The position numbers and the translations under genes were made by a program. 64,000 nucleotides of DNA from a phage. The stretch lies in the NCBI GenBank assembly GCA_024686575.1, contig GCA_024686575.1_4863.1. One strand, 5' to 3'. Below the pieces are notes generated by a model. The model was not told the origin of the DNA. It saw nothing but the letters and a program-made list of their open reading frames with translations, and ran no database searches. Positions within the stretch are counted from its first letter, which is position 1, and the number at the start of each line of letters is the position of its first letter. Of the stretch, positions 4,842 to 59,882 are shown piece after piece.

Positions 4842-5366
4842 TTATTTAGATAAATGACATGCGTACAACTGCGTCAGCACTTCGTGCGCAGCAAACTGCG
4901 TCGACGTACTGAACGTATCATCCACGACACGAGTCTTGGGACGCATATATTTAAAAAGTTCTGCGCAGAACATCTTTTTCGCAGCGTGGTCTTCACTTAA
5001 AGAAAAACCCGGTCCGGATTTAGCTTCTGCAAAAGACGCCACAACAACATCGCCACGTTGTGAGAACACCCAACGTAAACGACCGTCGAATGATTCCCCA
5101 TATAAATCAGCAAGGGTTTCATTCGTACCTTTCTCAACCAGGTTTAAGACCTGGTCATAATAAAGAGTCGGAAGTGCAGGTGGTGCCATAATCGATTTAT
5201 AAATCGAAATAGGGTCACTCACTGGCAGTATGATGGAACTAAAGCCCGACGAGCAGTCATATAACCAGTTAAAGAAGCTTGCTTGGAGTTCCTCCAACTT
5301 TTTAACGCCAGCCCCTTTATCTATGTTAGATTGAACTTCCCACGGTGGACTAAAACGAATTTGCAT
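4842..5366 (-). CDS. hypothetical protein
   Basis: Track ORF 4842..5420 would overlap the divergent + gene start; the internal ATG at 5364-5366 (MQIRFSPPW...) avoids this. Start uncertain. Confidence 0.4.
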   Translation of the reverse strand: MQIRFSPPWEVQSNIDKGAGVKKLEELQASFFNWLYDCSSGFSSIILPVSDPISIYKSIMAPPALPTLYYDQVLNLVEKGTNETLADLYGESFDGRLRWVFSQRGDVVVASFAEAKSGPGFSLSEDHAAKKMFCAELFKYMRPKTRVVDDTFSTSTQFAAHEVLTQLYACHLSK

Positions 5367-5380
5367 TTTAAGGATGCTCC

Positions 5381-6943
5381 ATGAATAGTAAAATGATGTT
5401 GATAACCGCCTTAGCCGCACTGTATACAGAATCTATGCTGACGGACCCTAGCAAGGATCATGATGTCATAAGAAAAGTTCTGATGCAGATCAAGCTTCCG
5501 GAATATGCGGAAGATGGCGAAGAGCGCTTTGCACTCATCGAGATCAAGGACATTATCACATCTATCATAGACGGCGGCATGGAATACGACCACGCGAGCG
5601 TTATGAAGCGCTTGAAGCTGGCCACCACTCAAGTACGTCCTCTATACGATACGATTACCAAATTCCTCGAAGACGATTTGCCCGAGGAAGAAGACAAACG
5701 TACCGAGCATCTTAATCGACAACTGTCTCAATATTATTTCCAATTACGTCAATGTTTACAGAGCGTCGAACTCAAAACAAAAATGGGTCGCGCGTTCGGA
5801 GCATTGAATGGAACTGAGACACGTGTTGATCTGAACACCGCAGTGCTCGAACTCAAAGAGGCGTTATCTACGTTCGGTGAACGCTCTCATAATAAGATTC
5901 CATCATTGGTCGGTGAGCTGGTTACAGATAATCGTGCTCCGTTTGTTAAAGTGTTCGACTCGATTAACAAGAAAGCTGCAGGTAATGGTTTGCAGACGGG
6001 CTGGAAAGCCATTAACCAAATGCTCGGTTGTAACAAAGGGATTACCGAAGAACTGTGGCTAATGCCAGCGTTACCTTTTAACTGTAAGTCTTTGTTCAGT
6101 CTCTTGCTGAGCCTATCGATTCCTATCTTCAACACGCCTGAGAAAGTAATGGCGGATGTGAAGGGCACACTGCAACCAATTATTCTTGACTTGAGTTTAG
6201 AAAACGAACTCGACGTTAACTTAGCTTACGGCTATCAAGCTCTGTACGGTCATTTTGAAGGACAAGTTCCACAGATGACCATTTCACAGGATGCAACCGC
6301 TGAAGAGAAGTTAGCACACACAACAGCAATGTCTGATTACCTCTGTGGTAAGATTCGCGCAAACGGTTGGGACTACGTTTTCCAAAAGCACACCAACTCT
6401 GATTTTAAAGTGCACTACATCAACGACCTTATTCTCGACTTACGTCGTCGCGGTTATCATGTTGTTGGCATTCGCGCAGACTACTTAGGCACAATCAGCA
6501 AAGCAGGACACGGCAACGGTATTGCCGGGAGTGATATCAAAGAAATTTATCGTATTGCTCGTAACATTCAAGTGGTGCGCAACCGTGGGTTCTTAATTGC
6601 CCCACACCAGATTTCCCCAGAAGGTAAGCGCTTAAAAGCGTTAGACCCGGTAGGCTTCTGTAAGAACTTACCTGGTCGTGGTCTTTACGATAGTTGTTCG
6701 AGCCTTGATAACGAGGCCGATGGTGAAATGTATTTTAACAAGCGTGTGGTCAACGGCCATAGCTTCTTAGAAGTTCAACGCGGTAAACACCGCACCATTA
6801 TCGATACTAAAGAATCTTATCACTACACAGTGATACCTTTCCAGGATGTAGGCATCCTGCCTTGGGATTGTGATAAAGAAGAAACCGTAACAGCGTCGTC
6901 TATCAACTTCTTCACCGGTGGAATGGGTGATGATTTGTTCTAA
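5381..6943 (+). CDS. hypothetical protein
   Basis: 520-aa ORF, ATG start with AAGGATG-like RBS region; followed by a hairpin at 6952-6969. No recognisable catalytic motif. Confidence 0.6.
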   Translation: MNSKMMLITALAALYTESMLTDPSKDHDVIRKVLMQIKLPEYAEDGEERFALIEIKDIITSIIDGGMEYDHASVMKRLKLATTQVRPLYDTITKFLEDDLPEEEDKRTEHLNRQLSQYYFQLRQCLQSVELKTKMGRAFGALNGTETRVDLNTAVLELKEALSTFGERSHNKIPSLVGELVTDNRAPFVKVFDSINKKAAGNGLQTGWKAINQMLGCNKGITEELWLMPALPFNCKSLFSLLLSLSIPIFNTPEKVMADVKGTLQPIILDLSLENELDVNLAYGYQALYGHFEGQVPQMTISQDATAEEKLAHTTAMSDYLCGKIRANGWDYVFQKHTNSDFKVHYINDLILDLRRRGYHVVGIRADYLGTISKAGHGNGIAGSDIKEIYRIARNIQVVRNRGFLIAPHQISPEGKRLKALDPVGFCKNLPGRGLYDSCSSLDNEADGEMYFNKRVVNGHSFLEVQRGKHRTIIDTKESYHYTVIPFQDVGILPWDCDKEETVTASSINFFTGGMGDDLF

Positions 6944-6951
6944 CGAACACT

Positions 6952-6969
6952 GGGGAGCTTAGGCTCCCC
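6952..6969 (+). terminator. stem-loop downstream of the + gene (weak terminator candidate)
   Basis: GGGGAGC-TTAG-GCTCCCC hairpin 9 nt after the stop at 6943; no clear U-tract. Confidence 0.3.
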
Positions 6970-7260
6970 TACGGGCAGTTTATGCGTCCTGCCGAGATCA
7001 AAAAAAATACGACGAACTATTTATATGCGTGGAATTACCCGAGTGCTAGAACACTCGGGTATAATTATTCCAGGCAAATATTCCTGTTATCTCTTGTTGA
7101 GTATTATCTCACCTCCTAGTCCTTTAATGGTACGGGTGGAAGTCTGCGGTTGGCGGGTAACCTCTTGCAGACGTTGTTGAAAAGCGACTTGTTTCAGCTG
7201 TTGCTGACGCAGTTGTTGCATAAAGGTATTCATGTTAACCTCTAGGTGGATGTGAATAAG

Positions 7261-7300
7261 CTCTCTCCTTCGGGAGAGAGCACCTTTTATTTTCTTTTCG
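7261..7300 (+). terminator. rho-independent terminator (+ strand)
   Basis: Hairpin CTCTCTCC-TTCG-GGAGAGAG followed by a T-rich tract CACCTTTTATTTTCTTTT. Confidence 0.55.
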
Positions 7301-7340
7301 GAAAATAAATATAAAGCCCTCTTACCCGAAGGTAAGAGGG
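7300..7340 (-). terminator. rho-independent terminator (- strand)
   Basis: Hairpin CCCTCTTACC-CGAA-GGTAAGAGGG with a T-rich tract on the minus strand; immediately downstream of the stop at 7347. Confidence 0.6.
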
Positions 7341-7346
7341 GTACTA

Positions 7347-8207
7347 CTACGGTTTATAATCAACTTCGTTGATCTCACCGCAAGCCGGACAAGCAATGTT
7401 CATTGTCTGCGAAGTGTAGCGATGGGTTCTCGGTACTGTAGCGACATGGTTGCGGTTACAGCCGGAACACGTCCAACCGACCACTGGTGCCTTCGATTGT
7501 TTCGGGGCAGGAGTGTCTTCTTTTAACAATGCGACTACCGCGTGAAATTTACGAAGTTCTGCGTTAACATGCGCTTCCCAGTCGGCGTCCAAACGCGCCG
7601 TGAACCAACGTTGAATCTTCTGGCCAAGGCCGTCTTGATTTTCTTCTTCATGGGACATCACAAACTTGAGATTTGCGCGACCCCACTGCACAACGTTCTC
7701 TACTTTAATCCCGTCTACGGTGTCGCTGATTGGCGTATAGTTAAAAGTTGGATAGGTGAGATAACAAGCTTCAGCTGTTGCAAAGACCGTATTGCCTTCA
7801 AACAGCGCCATGGCCTCATCGCCCTTAGCATCCTTCTGTGCGGCTTCCAATCGTGGGCAATGGAAACCTTCAAGTTGCTGGATTTTGGTCGTTAGCGCAT
7901 TGATACCCTGCAGCACAGCGATACGCTTTTTGCTGTCTGTAATGGTTGCCATTACCTTGCACAACGCGCGCGAGATAGCGCTATACATTGACGTTTTGCG
8001 GTTTTCATCGAGGAAACGCTCTTGCTGCTCCAGGTCGTAAGAAGACAGGCCGTAGCTCTGCCCTTCGACCAACACGACGTAAGTACGACGTTTGTCGCGG
8101 TCCAGCTGGACAATGGCCGCATCGGTTAACGGATCGCTAGCCAATACTTCGTGGTCGGGAGGTAGGGGGAAATCTGAACTTTTGATGAAATCAGTAATGC
8201 TGTACAT
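7347..8207 (-). CDS. hypothetical protein with C-terminal zinc-ribbon (CxxC...CxxC)
   Basis: 286 aa; C-terminus CSGCNRNH...CPACGEINE has two CxxC pairs; terminator hairpin directly downstream. Confidence 0.55.
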   Translation of the reverse strand: MYSITDFIKSSDFPLPPDHEVLASDPLTDAAIVQLDRDKRRTYVVLVEGQSYGLSSYDLEQQERFLDENRKTSMYSAISRALCKVMATITDSKKRIAVLQGINALTTKIQQLEGFHCPRLEAAQKDAKGDEAMALFEGNTVFATAEACYLTYPTFNYTPISDTVDGIKVENVVQWGRANLKFVMSHEEENQDGLGQKIQRWFTARLDADWEAHVNAELRKFHAVVALLKEDTPAPKQSKAPVVGWTCSGCNRNHVATVPRTHRYTSQTMNIACPACGEINEVDYKP

Positions 8208-9250: not shown

Positions 9251-9276
9251 TCACCTAGGTAATATATATCTGAAAT
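9251..9276 (-). promoter_or_regulatory. conserved 26-mer TCACCTAGGTAATATATATCTGAAAT, copy 1
   Basis: Identical 26-mer also at 17753-17778; shares the TAATAT..TATCT core with the 15-mer; upstream of the small membrane-protein gene. Confidence 0.5.
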
Positions 9277-17752: not shown

Positions 17753-17778
17753 TCACCTAGGTAATATATATCTGAAAT
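17753..17778 (-). promoter_or_regulatory. conserved 26-mer TCACCTAGGTAATATATATCTGAAAT, copy 2
   Basis: 43 nt upstream of the start at 17710. Confidence 0.5.
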
Positions 17779-46121: not shown

Positions 46122-46136
46122 AGATAATATCTATCT
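46122..46136 (-). promoter_or_regulatory. conserved 15-mer AGATAATATCTATCT, copy 3
   Basis: Exact 15-mer 31 nt upstream of the RNAP beta-like gene start (46091), in the divergent region shared with the + gene at 46158. Confidence 0.55.
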
Positions 46137-49611: not shown

Positions 49612-51246
49612 TTAAGAATTAAACCATTCAACTTCTTCTAACTTGCGACGTGCATTCAACACCATAAACTCCGCCAGGCTATTGTGCAGTGACAAGTGAG
49701 GTATATAGTTTGGCTGATCCGTCTCACACTTCAGCAGCGCAGCTGCTTCTGGTGTAGCCCTGAGATGGAACAGATACGGGTTGATGTGATCCTTGTGTAA
49801 CAAGGTCAGTGATTCCCGTGGTGTAGATTGCGGTTCGAGATTACGCGGGTTGCGATACTCCTGAAGATAATATCTATCTAAATCTGCTTTGAGTTCAGAT
49901 CGAATTGGGTCGGCTGCATAACCGGCAGACATCTCAGAACGCACCATATTGCAACTTAACAGTTGCGCAACGTCATACATTCCATAATTGAGATAAGTTG
50001 CCTGTGCTAACGCCATGCCGTAGCGAAACGCTTCTGGTCCACATTCGGTATACGTCTTATAATGCGCGCTACGATGGAGTGCTAATGCGACTAACCATTC
50101 GTGGAGCGTATAGACAGGACCGTCGTGTGTTGCCAGTTGCGAATCAATCAATAACTTAACATCTGCTGGAGCGGCATTATCCAGGCGCATTGTTTTCAAG
50201 AAAGAGCGGTATTCTTTAAATACGTACTCGGTACGGACGTATTCTTTCATCTGGGCAGGAGAACGTGCCTGCACCAAATCCATGGCGTTTATCTTACCCT
50301 TTTCGCCATTGAATATCACACTTTCTGGATGCGCTTTTAACAGCACCGGCTGGTTAGAGATTTTGTTTGCAAAACCTGTTTCAATCTCTTGTTTAACCAG
50401 AAAATACATGCCGGTGACGATATTGTTGTTAACCATGATTTCAACCGGTAATTCACCACCGACTTCACGGACAGCCAACAATTTAATAATAGCATACGCC
50501 AGGATATAATCTTCCATCATATCCGTGCCATAGCCCCGCACAGTAGCCAGTACCGACAAACTGGTGCTGTTCGTACCTTTGTTTGCCAGTTCTTTTTCTA
50601 CCTTTTCCATCACTGTCTGTAGGAACCCACGCAGTTTCGGAATAGCAGGTAAAGACATGACTTCTGTGTCTTGAAGCATCTCCAGACAGTATGTCAGATT
50701 GTACACCATTTTCCGATGTGTTTCGATTGGCAAGTTCTTACCTATCGGGAACGTCCCCATGGTGAGGAACACCGGAATATACGGTTTAATCATCAGGACC
50801 AGTATCAACAACTCGTAATAGTCCGGACGAATGTACGTCATCGCTTCCGGATAATTACTGTTCATTTCATCGTGCGTATCTTCCATGTTCTGCGGAATCC
50901 ACAGCTTATCGATGGGATACAGCTTACGATACACTTCGGCCTTGTGGAACTTCGCAATCGTCTGCACAATCTTCGGCATGTGCTTACGCTGCGTTTCCGT
51001 CGATTCGTTTGCCAGCTCGTCCAGCATCAGATACGCCATGAACAGTTCATCTTGTTCGTCTGGCGTTAAATAATCCCACACGCGTTGTAATTCCATGAAG
51101 AGAATGTTGTCGCGTGCAATCTGTTTACCTTTAACAGTGATGTAGTCGGGTGCGTTGTTATCCTTCCGATAACGTAAGCCAATAAATGAGACCTCTTGAC
51201 CATGATGCTCGATTGTCATCCGGTCTTTAATCTTCGTAATTTTCAT
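49612..51246 (-). CDS. hypothetical protein
   Basis: 544 aa, ATG with GGAG RBS; 15-mer motif 35 nt upstream; a second copy of the motif lies inside the 3' part of this ORF. Confidence 0.55.
   Translation of the reverse strand: MKITKIKDRMTIEHHGQEVSFIGLRYRKDNNAPDYITVKGKQIARDNILFMELQRVWDYLTPDEQDELFMAYLMLDELANESTETQRKHMPKIVQTIAKFHKAEVYRKLYPIDKLWIPQNMEDTHDEMNSNYPEAMTYIRPDYYELLILVLMIKPYIPVFLTMGTFPIGKNLPIETHRKMVYNLTYCLEMLQDTEVMSLPAIPKLRGFLQTVMEKVEKELANKGTNSTSLSVLATVRGYGTDMMEDYILAYAIIKLLAVREVGGELPVEIMVNNNIVTGMYFLVKQEIETGFANKISNQPVLLKAHPESVIFNGEKGKINAMDLVQARSPAQMKEYVRTEYVFKEYRSFLKTMRLDNAAPADVKLLIDSQLATHDGPVYTLHEWLVALALHRSAHYKTYTECGPEAFRYGMALAQATYLNYGMYDVAQLLSCNMVRSEMSAGYAADPIRSELKADLDRYYLQEYRNPRNLEPQSTPRESLTLLHKDHINPYLFHLRATPEAAALLKCETDQPNYIPHLSLHNSLAEFMVLNARRKLEEVEWFNS
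49865..49879 (-). promoter_or_regulatory. conserved 15-mer AGATAATATCTATCT, copy 4 (inside a coding region)
   Basis: Exact 15-mer embedded in the 3' part of CDS 49612..51246, 266 nt upstream of the next gene start (49599). Confidence 0.4.
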
Positions 51247-51280
51247 TATAGTTGAACTCCGCGAATAGTCGATTGCACTG

Positions 51281-51295
51281 AGATAATATCTATCT
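51281..51295 (-). promoter_or_regulatory. conserved 15-mer AGATAATATCTATCT, copy 5
   Basis: Exact 15-mer 35 nt upstream of the start at 51246. Confidence 0.55.
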
Positions 51296-51381
51296 CAATC
51301 TTCTTACAGTGTGTGTTGCAGGACCACGCATAAGCGTTAATAGCCCAAGGTCTCCCTTGGGCGTATTTTTTATTTTGTTTC

Positions 51382-59773: not shown

Positions 59774-59788
59774 GAGATAATATCTGCC
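59774..59788 (-). promoter_or_regulatory. 15-mer variant AGATAATATCTGCCT, copy 6
   Basis: Two mismatches; 46 nt upstream of the 617-aa gene start (59728). Confidence 0.45.
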
Positions 59789-59867
59789 TGTAATTTCATG
59801 GAATGCAAGTATGCCGTCGCTTACTTACAAGGCACATAGTCCAGACATTTCTCAGGAACTGTCACAT

Positions 59868-59882
59868 AGATAATATCAATCT
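59868..59882 (-). promoter_or_regulatory. 15-mer variant AGATAATATCAATCT, copy 7
   Basis: Two mismatches; second copy in the same intergenic region, also about 50 nt upstream of the + gene start at 59935. Confidence 0.4.

Follow-up and report, generated by a model that had tools for sequence, protein, structure and literature searches.

Regulation of the lambda OOP RNA/cII type involves a short cis-antisense transcript that has its own promoter, lies opposite a small gene and ends at an intrinsic terminator. Intrinsic terminators combine a GC-rich stem-loop with a following U-tract, and a single hairpin that has an A-tract as well as a U-tract can act as a bidirectional terminator. Among the 3' ends mapped in related jumbo phages, many do not show canonical intrinsic features, and bidirectional terminators also occur there (PMC11512511). 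The late-promoter consensus of the phiKZ nvRNAP is (-3)TATG(+1) (PMC7598289, PMC7618050). Antisense RNAs with their own start sites have been reported for phiKZ and other phages, and moron-like single-gene cassettes for virulent phages (PMC10914365). SPN3US encodes two small proteins, gp71 and gp72 (SPN3US_0071/0072, YP_009153365/YP_009153366), whose length, position next to the helicase gene and GLGG motif with a preceding lysine are shared by the protein considered here. Our literature searches found no paper on gp71/gp72, no assigned function for their family and no transcriptome data for SPN3US-like phages.

The DNA analysed here (the window, a stretch of 64 kb) belongs to a Seoulvirus, an SPN3US-like Salmonella jumbo phage, and is 99.3% identical to SaP7 over the region of interest. 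At least 80% of our 1.3-kb query is covered by 34 Seoulvirus records. We focused on an island of 403 nt whose borders, the end of a plus-strand ORF at 6943 and of a minus-strand ORF at 7347, are where an earlier note on the sequence had put them. The genes concerned are:

5381-6943, plus strand: DnaB-like replicative helicase gene from the ORF list (SPN3US gp73 in GenBank numbering)
7087-7233 including the stop codon, minus strand: gene for a 48-residue small protein, homologue of SPN3US gp71 (SPN3US_0071, YP_009153365), PHROG 18219
7239-7242, minus strand: GAGG, the Shine-Dalgarno sequence of the small gene, with the ATG 5 nt further on
7347-8207, minus strand: gene for a 286-residue hypothetical protein, homologue of SPN3US gp70, PHROG 10180

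The helicase gene matches PHROG 3213 (E = 4.5e-201) and Pfam divDNAB (1.2e-124), is called a helicase in relatives and is convergent with the small gene. The 286-residue gp70 homologue has a CxxC...CxxC arrangement near its C-terminus and is the final gene of an operon that begins past a promoter-like motif at 9257-9271. The layout of the 400-bp island is mostly ordinary. We consider it probable that the island is a junction at which two opposing transcription units converge, and that it holds one genuine small gene and a set of strand-specific hairpins.

The earlier note had described the island as gene-poor and had pointed to a GAGG-preceded ORF of 47 residues at about 7091..7234 on the minus strand, possibly a tiny protein missed by standard callers. 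The ORF is present on that strand, but at 7087-7233 and with 48 residues, and the GAGG is indeed found 5 nt before its ATG. The words gene-poor and missed do not fit, since about 36% of the island is a gene annotated in the GenBank records of close relatives (SaP7, SPFM4 and SPN3US), and its product matches PHROG 18219 over the full profile (E = 1.5e-26, residues 1-48 on profile positions 1-48 of 48). The protein annotated in SaP7 and SPFM4 is identical, and the SPN3US version, a hypothetical protein, is 92% identical. The small gene is therefore already known, being present in GenBank and PHROGs as a hypothetical, clade-specific gene.

That a tiny protein is encoded was borne out. The low dN/dS identifies the small ORF as a real protein gene under purifying selection: dN/dS is 0.09-0.57 for divergent pairs with estimable dS, with dS saturated, and the comparison of Huxley with pEa6 gives a pS of 0.82 and a pN of 0.11. 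Length and position are kept in two genera. The product has 47-49 residues across Seoulvirus, Machinavirus and metagenomic relatives, the gene is flanked by the upstream operon and by the convergent DnaB-like helicase gene in at least 15 loci (Seoulvirus, Machinavirus and metagenomic contigs), and a purine-rich Shine-Dalgarno sequence is found at the same spot in every relative. A conserved plus-strand ORF overlapping the small gene was also considered and was rejected, as frames, starts and lengths vary between phages.

The full sequence of the product is MNTFMQQLRQQQLKQVAFQQRLQEVTRQPQTSTRTIKGLGGEIILNKR. Our own count of its residues gives 11 Gln, 5 Arg, 3 Lys and 2 Glu. The protein is hydrophilic, with a net charge of about +6 and no hydrophobic segment. 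Residues Q20 and R21 are invariant and I43 and K47 are conserved, while the codons for all four vary; the C-terminal turn is centred on an invariant GLGG with a near-invariant Lys just before it. AlphaFold2 placed a helix at residues 2-25 with moderate confidence and a weak hairpin at 36-43 (mean pLDDT 67), confidence being low outside the helix. The small protein is thus predicted to consist of an amphipathic N-terminal helix, a disordered linker and a C-terminal turn at GLGG. A type I toxin-antitoxin system was rejected because the peptide is hydrophilic and has no hydrophobic, membrane-active segment.

Distant relatives of the small protein were sought with several methods. Profile searches recovered full-length relatives of 44-49 residues only, together with three longer SPFM entries that match in part. 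No relative beyond the clade was found by a word-indexed search with either the single sequence or the profile, and a full HMM scan of 1.84 billion cluster representatives returned three family clusters and one spurious match. There was no Pfam match above the curated cutoffs, and the PDB gave coiled-coil noise alone (E > 1). A match to HamA in PADLOC was weak (14 bits, E = 0.005) and was disregarded. As a guess, the small protein is most likely an accessory binding factor; an enzyme or a part of the virion seems less likely.

Within the small gene there is one further element:

7109-7118, minus strand: internal Shine-Dalgarno-like sequence UAGGAGGUGA, spanning codons L39-G40-G41-E42

Here, AGGAGGUGA is a perfect 9-nt Shine-Dalgarno complement, which reads UCACCUCCUA on the plus strand. 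Leu39 is encoded by YTA only (18/18) and Gly40 by GGR only (18/18), and Gly41 by GGT in 17/18; Gly38, by contrast, is encoded by all four codons. Judged by this codon use, the Shine-Dalgarno-like element is conserved at the nucleotide level. With one mismatch allowed, TAGGRGGTGA has a single match in the 64 kb, at this site, where 4.3 were expected. Among the relatives compared, no conserved long-range partner or exposed loop for the element was found; UCACCU occurs around codons 6-8 in some lineages and is absent from the window. Since about nine lineages keep the synonymous positions of L39, G40 and G41 frozen, and no other Shine-Dalgarno-like site within the 64 kb is as strong, one could suppose that an RNA or DNA element (the Shine-Dalgarno-like UAGGRGGUGA plus structures) drives conservation of the ORF and that the 48-residue product is non-functional. 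We regard this as very improbable, because the constraint is confined to about 10 nt while the remaining ORF shows many synonymous and few non-synonymous changes. Moreover, the start, stop, length and residues Q20, R21, I43 and K47 are kept with variable codons, and the upstream purine-rich Shine-Dalgarno sequence is retained in all lineages.

The four hairpins that had been listed in the earlier note are all present in the sequence, with H2 reaching from 7037 rather than from 7040 to 7062. Together with an AT-only palindrome they are:

6952-6969, plus strand: H1, 7-bp GC-rich hairpin GGGGAGC-ttag-GCTCCCC, 8 nt past the helicase stop codon
7037-7062, minus strand: H2, 10-bp hairpin with a 6-nt loop, TACCCGAGTG-ctagaa-CACTCGGGTA, 24 nt past the small-gene stop codon
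7260-7281, plus strand: H3, 9-bp hairpin with a UUCG loop, GCTCTCTCC-ttcg-GGAGAGAGC, and the tail ACCUUUUAUUUUCUUUU, from the terminator scan
7286-7309, no strand assigned: AT-only palindrome TTTATTTTC-N6-GAAAATAAA, between H3 and H4, conserved in all lineages
7317-7340, minus strand: H4, 10-bp hairpin with a UUCG loop, CCCTCTTACC, and the tail CUUUAUAUUUAUUUU, from the terminator scan

A scan of positions 6500-7800 for terminator-like sites gave five, compared with 1.4 +/- 1.2 for shuffled sequence. Predicted folding energies of the 403-nt island are -137.4 kcal/mol (z -6.9) for the minus strand and -155 kcal/mol (z -8.2) for the plus strand, and 0/100 shuffles folded as well. A small regulatory RNA, also proposed in the earlier note, would be in keeping with this predicted structure, which is very strong on both strands. 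Every stem shows compensatory changes, and short promoter-proximal terminated RNAs are known from phiKZ and 201phi2-1. Nevertheless, the idea that the hairpins form the body of an independent structured RNA, either a small regulator or a riboswitch-like element, with the ORF incidental, is largely refuted, and we give it very little credence. In a covariance-model search, the check suggested at the time, no Rfam family reached its threshold; permissive thresholds gave nine hits, all far below it, the best being the miRNA model mir-4679, whose 26.9 bits compare with a gathering score of 88. Each hairpin is a simple stem-loop of its own at the end of a gene, and two of them have U-tracts that point in opposite directions, which does not fit one folded RNA. 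What separates them is a protein gene that is under purifying selection and keeps its reading frame and length. The best reading of the hairpins is that they are terminators or 3'-end hairpins, each specific to one strand, of the transcription units around them.

Stem sequences were compared manually, anchored on the loops, because a MAFFT alignment of the upstream segment misaligned the stems between genera. This gave five to seven distinct stems each for H2, H3 and H4 and three for H1, and all of them pair. The stems of H1 are, by lineage, GGGGAGC/GCTCCCC, GCTGGAGAC/GTCTCCAGC and CCCGGGAGCC/GGCTCTCGGG. H2 has at least five distinct stems (TACCCGAGTG, GTACCTGAGTG, GTACCCATGTG, CTAGCCGGTG and CTAAGTGGGTG), all of which pair; those of H3 include GCTCTCTCC, GTCCTCTCC, GGTTACTCCCC, GGTTATCCCC and GTCCTCC, and H4 has at least six, again all pairing. 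The sequence comparison, with pairing kept through compensatory changes, shows that the hairpins are selected as strand-specific structures.

The non-Watson-Crick pairs bear on the strand of each hairpin. In H1 of locus L014, a pair that reads A.C on the small-ORF strand becomes G.U when read on the helicase strand, and pEa29, L019, L014 and the Machinavirus group all have a UUCG loop in H1 on that strand. The sole non-Watson-Crick pairs in the core stem of H2 (pEa6 and L017) are G.U on the small-gene strand. The C.A pairs that H3 has on the small-gene strand in Huxley, pSal04 and pEa43 are G.U on the plus strand, and the wobbles of H4 (SPAsTU, Huxley, pSal04, pEa43, pEa6 and L015) are all U.G on the minus strand. 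Taken together, loop type, U-tracts and the asymmetry of G·U over A·C place H4 and H2 in minus-strand RNA, and H3 and H1 in plus-strand RNA. The asymmetry thereby offers a strand call for each hairpin without RNA data.

H4 on the minus strand and H3 on the plus strand have the form of intrinsic terminators, a GC-rich stem-loop followed by a U-tract, in the window, Huxley and pEa_SNUABM_11, and H3 scores as a helicase-strand terminator in the latter two phages as well. Like known intrinsic terminators, both have a UUCG tetraloop and a site at a gene end and would insulate opposing units; the design of H4, a UUCG hairpin with a T-tract, is that of other intergenic terminators in the phage. Unlike a bidirectional terminator made of a single hairpin, this arrangement has two hairpins flanking a shared AT palindrome, whose halves provide one U-tract each for the outward-facing H4 and H3. 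In pEa29 the halves of the palindrome co-vary (TTATTTTTC/GAAAAATAA); the window contains no further copy of it.

H1 and H2 differ from intrinsic terminators on their assigned strands. H1 has no U-tract on the plus strand, where UACGGGCAGU comes next, and H2 has no adjacent U-tract on the minus strand, where it is followed by AUUCCACGCA and, 25 nt further, by a T8 run. On the plus strand H2 has an UAAUUAUUCC tail and passes a loose terminator scan. In view of the missing adjacent U-tracts we term H1 and H2 3'-end hairpins, not canonical terminators, and they may be processing or stability elements. H1 is likely the 3'-end hairpin of the helicase mRNA, and H2 that of the small-gene mRNA. We infer that the hairpins act as terminators or 3'-end stabilisers. 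Transcription of the island presumably depends on multisubunit polymerases encoded by the phage itself, and the rules by which these terminate are poorly known.

According to the model that we favour, the minus-strand operon (homologues of gp66-gp70) would stop at H4, a UUCG hairpin followed by a U-tract. The 48-residue basic protein would then be made from its own GAGG ribosome-binding site, and its mRNA would end at, or gain stability from, H2. The helicase mRNA would bear H1 right past its stop codon. Plus-strand transcription that continues or restarts would cross the small gene in antisense and halt at H3, which would keep it from entering the upstream operon. H3 and H4 would stand back to back on the shared AT-rich palindrome, each using one half as its U-tract.

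Between H4 and the ATG of the small gene there is no AGATAGATATTATCT motif, sigma-70-like site or TATG. The recurrent AGATAGATATTATCT motif is absent from the entire island, and a scan for sigma-70 promoters found none in the region, as expected for a phage that uses its own polymerases. With no recognisable promoter, expression of the small gene would need read-through of H4 or an unrecognised promoter. Besides the internal Shine-Dalgarno-like element, the favoured model does not account for these conserved features of the plus strand:

6972-7007, plus strand: non-coding block GGGCAGTTTATGCGTCCTGCCGAGATC-A8, nearly invariant in Seoulvirus and Machinavirus, with variable flanks
6981-6984, plus strand: TATG box 1, inside this block, invariant in all loci read but one
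7024-7027, plus strand: TATG box 2, 9-14 nt upstream of H2, a candidate phiKZ-type promoter core, by inference only

The A8 run of the block, at 7000-7007, reads as T8-11 on the strand of the small gene. In L018 and L014 the block is divided by insertions between the T-run and an ACRCATAA part, and a GGCAG/CTGCC pairing within it is lost in pEa29 and SPAsTU. No second copy of 6977-7005 occurs in the window; as neither this block nor the AT palindrome has other copies there, they are not copies of a dispersed promoter motif. The complement of box 2, CATA, follows H2 in every locus read, with differing adjoining bases. The context of box 2, TTTATATGCGT, resembles TAAATATATGCGTCC, part of a stretch that precedes the capsid gene by about 110 nt and hardly differs between genera; Huxley keeps the TATG, shifted by 2 nt.

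The boxes could be phiKZ-type nvRNAP promoters of a cis-antisense RNA of about 265-310 nt that ends at H3. Such an RNA, starting just before H2, would span the whole small gene, exist beside the protein gene and tune it or shut it off, for example late in infection. Several observations point this way. H3 is a conserved canonical plus-strand terminator just past the small gene, and pEa_SNUABM_11 retains it despite two extra helicase-strand terminators between the helicase stop codon and box 2, which suggests that plus-strand transcription restarts in between. The spacers around the boxes are variable, while box 2 is invariant and box 1 nearly so; both contexts resemble the TAAATATATGCGTCC stretch, and a similar TATGCGTCC is found upstream of the capsid gene. 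The late promoters of phiKZ have a TATG core, and phage antisense RNAs with start sites of their own have been reported. On the sense strand of co-directional SPN3US intergenic gaps, no 4-mer is more depleted than CATA, the complement of a TATG that points antisense (1 observed, 10.3 expected), suggesting that TATG is a live signal in SPN3US.

We nevertheless judge the antisense module unlikely. The motif has just 4 nt, a core too short to be called from sequence alone, and the spacing from the A-run to box 2 varies from 12 to 19 nt. The wobble pairs of H2 favour minus-strand RNA over a plus-strand 5' hairpin, and H3 is explained equally well as a backstop against helicase read-through. Unlike phiKZ-type late promoters, the boxes face away from annotated genes, and the extended motif is not enriched genome-wide: TATGCGT occurs five times in the window against 2.2 expected and is intergenic at 2/16 sites in 100 kb of SPN3US (about 0.9 expected), and it was rejected as a general promoter motif.

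As the small gene holds a conserved perfect Shine-Dalgarno sequence, an antisense RNA running from about 7027 and/or 6984 to H3 (about 7290) would carry UCACCUCCUA, a mimic of the 16S rRNA 3' tail. It is doubtful, and somewhat less likely still than the antisense module itself, that such an RNA forms a timing switch between mRNA and antisense RNA, or even acts more widely on ribosome-binding sites. A likeness to lambda OOP RNA/cII would hold only if the antisense reading were right; the putative RNA would cover the whole gene, and there is no sequence or family relationship between that system and the island. Were the antisense RNA or the internal Shine-Dalgarno-like element functional, a small regulatory module would be added to jumbo-phage biology.

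On the favoured model of a convergent junction with one small gene, the island as it stands is routine, a clade-specific hypothetical small gene with ordinary terminators around it. It also illustrates, through the comparison of relatives, strand-specific hairpins where genes converge in a jumbo phage that forms a nucleus, a setting in which promoter and termination rules are barely known. With moron-like cassettes of virulent phages (PMC10914365) it shares a lone small gene that is flanked by hairpins and has a ribosome-binding site to itself, a copy number that varies and a site that accepts other inserts. It differs from them in that no dedicated promoter was identified, the small gene shares its strand with the upstream operon, and it is conserved in two genera rather than sporadic.

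The small gene is specific to this phage clade and variable in copy number. SPN3US, MET_P1_082_240, the SPLA phages and Proteus phage 7 have two tandem paralogues, which in SPN3US (gp71/gp72) are diverged and retain the same residues; the window has one, and tblastn found no second copy in it. The 3' end of the window allele (GEIILNKR and the downstream spacer) matches the allele of the SPAsTU type, so that the window allele is recombinant.

The island, about 400 bp long (6944–7346), is the junction of two converging transcription units, since the helicase gene on its left is read on the plus strand and the gp70 homologue on its right on the minus strand. Salmonella phage SaP7 matches the 1.3 kb around it at 99.3% identity, and about 30 further SPN3US-like jumbo phages (genus Seoulvirus) do so at 95–99%; Erwinia jumbo phages match more weakly. 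The features of the region are as follows.

5381–6943, plus strand: DnaB-like replicative helicase gene, left flank of the island
6952–6969: hairpin H1, UUCG loop on the plus strand
7036–7090: gap between small gene and helicase gene, an insertion and recombination hotspot (2078–2483 in the SPN3US locus L002; 1501–1906, 2263–2715 and 2150–2553 in the relative loci L013, L018 and L014)
7037–7062: hairpin H2, core wobble pairs on the minus strand
7087–7233, minus strand: small ORF of 48 aa, GAGG 5 nt ahead of its ATG
7109–7118, minus strand: internal Shine-Dalgarno (SD)-like AGGAGGUGA, perfect over 9 nt, inside the small ORF
7260–7281: hairpin H3, UUCG loop and U-tract on the plus strand
7286–7309: a fifth, AT-only palindrome between H3 and H4
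7317–7340: hairpin H4, UUCG loop and U-tract on the minus strand
7347–8207, minus strand: gene for a 286-aa hypothetical protein (SPN3US gp70 homologue, PHROG 10180), right flank of the island

The small ORF, which the earlier note had described together with its GAGG, is a real gene of the SPN3US gp71/gp72 family (PHROG 18219), and every test we applied agreed on this. The PHROG match extends from end to end (E = 1.5e-26), and length and position are conserved. Searches with tblastn and profiles recovered full-length relatives of 47–49 aa (approximately 40–55% identity) in Seoulvirus, in Machinavirus (Huxley, Machina, Parshik, the pEa_SNUABM series and pSal-SNUABM-04) and in metagenomic contigs, always with the upstream operon on one side and the convergent helicase gene on the other. 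Pairwise dN/dS was 0.1–0.5 with saturated synonymous sites (pS 0.82 and pN 0.11 between Huxley and pEa6), and no conserved opposite-strand ORF was found across the gene. The suggestion of a tiny protein was therefore right, but not that standard callers had missed it: SaP7 and SPFM4 annotate the identical protein as "hypothetical protein", and SPN3US gp71 (SPN3US_0071) is 92% identical. As an annotation the feature was thus on record before, and in kind it is ordinary. In SPN3US and several relatives the gene has a second, diverged paralogue in tandem, gp72, in which the key residues are retained. Invariant in the family are M1, Q20, R21, G38, L39, G40, G41, I43 and K47, with K37 nearly so. 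Several SPFM records (GenBank LR5359xx) match the region in about 20 short pieces and have longer, frame-disrupted "small ORF" annotations of 65–68 aa; faulty assembly or sequencing seems a better explanation for this than biology.

All four hairpins proposed earlier are present, and they are conserved, strand-specific structures. A scan for terminator-like sites found five in 1.3 kb (1.4 expected), and the 403-nt island folded more stably than dinucleotide shuffles on both strands (z = -6.9 for the minus and -8.2 for the plus strand). Alignments of intergenic segments covered 15 distinct loci, and stems were compared using the loops as anchors. Pairing was kept despite sequence change in every hairpin, with at least six distinct stems for H4, five each for H3 and H2, and three for H1. 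Non-Watson-Crick pairs discriminate between strands, since what is a G·U pair in one becomes an A·C mismatch in its complement. The wobble pairs lie on the minus strand in H4 (6/6) and in the H2 core (both of two), and on the plus strand in H3 (three) and H1 (one, in pEa_SNUABM_11). The strand of the hyperstable UUCG loop agrees: minus for H4, plus for H3 and H1. After H4 comes CUUUAUAUUUAUUUU on the minus strand, and after H3 comes ACCUUUUAUUUUCUUUU on the plus strand; the AT palindrome is these two U-tracts face to face, and in pEa29 its two halves are altered together. H4 and H3 have the sequence features of intrinsic terminators. H1 and H2 lack them: with no U-tract next to them, they are termed 3′-end hairpins here and not canonical terminators. 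Of 132 terminators mapped in the related phage 201phi2-1, only 52 look intrinsic, and 15 are bidirectional (PMC11512511).

Other intergenic regions of the phage share the H3/H4 design, a UUCG hairpin plus T-tract; a AGATAGATATTATCT motif and then a 5′ UTR often come next. This 15-mer occurs at nine minus-strand sites in the window with at most two mismatches:

1629–1643, 2434–2448, 9257–9271, 17759–17773, 46122–46136, 49865–49879, 51281–51295, 59775–59789, 59868–59882, minus strand: AGATAGATATTATCT sites

With three mismatches allowed there were 12 matches, where chance would give 1.05. In each of the six gaps read it stands just ahead of a minus-strand gene, in two of them directly after a UUCG-hairpin and T-tract terminator, and it is probably the phage's own promoter consensus. 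Several 5′ UTRs have a CGACTAT box some 20–40 nt downstream of it.

We infer that the hairpins terminate transcription, and consider the following layout the most likely. On the minus strand, the operon starting after the promoter-like motif at 9257–9271 would terminate at H4; the small gene would be translated via its own SD, and its mRNA would end at H2 or gain protection from it. No recognisable promoter lies between H4 and the small-gene ATG, so the gene would need H4 read-through or an unknown promoter class. On the plus strand, H1 would be carried on the helicase mRNA, and transcription that continues or restarts would pass the small gene in antisense and halt at H3, shielding the upstream operon.

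Several features together would allow a cis-antisense RNA across the small gene, starting near 7027 and ending near 7290. Block 6972–7007 and a second site, 7021–7034, are conserved at the sequence level, each with TATG on the plus strand. The phiKZ non-virion polymerase recognises (-3)TATG(+1) (PMC7598289, PMC7618050). CATA, the TATG complement, is invariant after H2 in every locus read, and ACRCATAA ahead of H1 is kept in all but one. A similar TAAATATATGCGTCC lies about 110 nt ahead of the capsid gene in a stretch near-identical between genera. Across positions 1–100000 of SPN3US, no 4-mer falls further below expectation than CATA on the sense strand of intergenic gaps between co-directional genes (1 observed, 10.3 expected), while TATG occurs about as often as predicted (13 vs 9.7), a composition that suggests selection against antisense-pointing TATG promoter cores. 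Moreover, pEa_SNUABM_11 has two additional helicase-strand terminators before TATG box 2 (7024–7027) and still keeps H3. However, TATGCGT is not enriched in intergenic DNA and the spacing from TATG to the A-run is variable, and we consider this transcript unlikely. That speculative RNA aside, the regulatory RNA envisaged earlier found no support, and an Rfam search gave no family match.

Block 6972–7007, the TATG boxes, the SD-like site and the hotspot lie outside what the transcription layout explains. Codons L39-G40-G41-E42 read UAGGAGGUGA, which includes a 9-nt perfect SD complement, and their synonymous sites are frozen across about nine lineages: Leu39 is only YTA, Gly40 only GGR and Gly41 GGT in 17 of 18 sequences, while the adjacent Gly38 takes all four codons. 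TAGGRGGTGA, with one mismatch allowed, has a single match in the 64-kb window against 4.3 expected. There is no start codon downstream of the site, and no conserved pairing partner was found. The hotspot holds the second paralogue in SPN3US-type phages; one metagenomic contig has a 150-aa gene there, and pEa_SNUABM_11 some 270 nt with the two extra terminators. Small-gene alleles have a mosaic make-up whose breakpoints fall at the conserved segment coding for KGLGG: that of the window is gp71-like in its 5′ part and SPAsTU-like at its 3′ end, and that of phage 1252 joins a gp71 5′ part to a gp72 3′ part.

AlphaFold2 predicted a helix in the small protein (residues 2–25, pLDDT ~82), then a linker without order and, around GLGG, a weak beta-hairpin. 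When 1.84 billion cluster representatives were scanned exhaustively with a profile, matches came from this phage clade only, and searches of Pfam, PDB and PADLOC gave no credible match. With 5 Arg and 3 Lys to 2 Glu, the peptide is basic as well as hydrophilic, on which grounds we rejected a type I toxin. From its clade restriction, variable copy number, basic helix and conserved C-terminal turn we infer, as a low-confidence guess, a small accessory binding factor.

The 286-aa neighbour, which ends in CSGC...N24...CPAC, may carry a zinc ribbon at its C-terminus. Its matches to a treble-clef zinc-finger Pfam family and to two PHROGs, one a translational-regulator family and the other Lar-like, are weak (E between 0.006 and 0.8). 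The helicase gene and a minus-strand gp74-like gene diverge at 5366–5381 with starts about 15–27 nt apart, or overlapping in longest-ORF calls, so close that the promoters of both must sit within each other's coding sequence. Between two minus-strand genes (51247–51381) there is one more terminator that faces antisense, a hairpin GCCCAAGG-gaga-CCTTGGGC with its T-tract on the plus strand. The TTATGCGTGGTCCTGC that comes after it on the minus strand is similar to the conserved island boxes. Finally, the gene that precedes the major capsid gene has in its 3′ end, at ~4930–4990 (minus strand), a coding stretch near-identical between Seoulvirus and Huxley (Machinavirus). The stretch contains A5-GTTCTGCGCAGAAC-T5, a palindrome between A and T runs, then TTTAAATATATGCGTCC, about 110 nt ahead of the capsid ATG, and probably serves the capsid gene as a regulatory signal embedded in coding sequence or as a late promoter.
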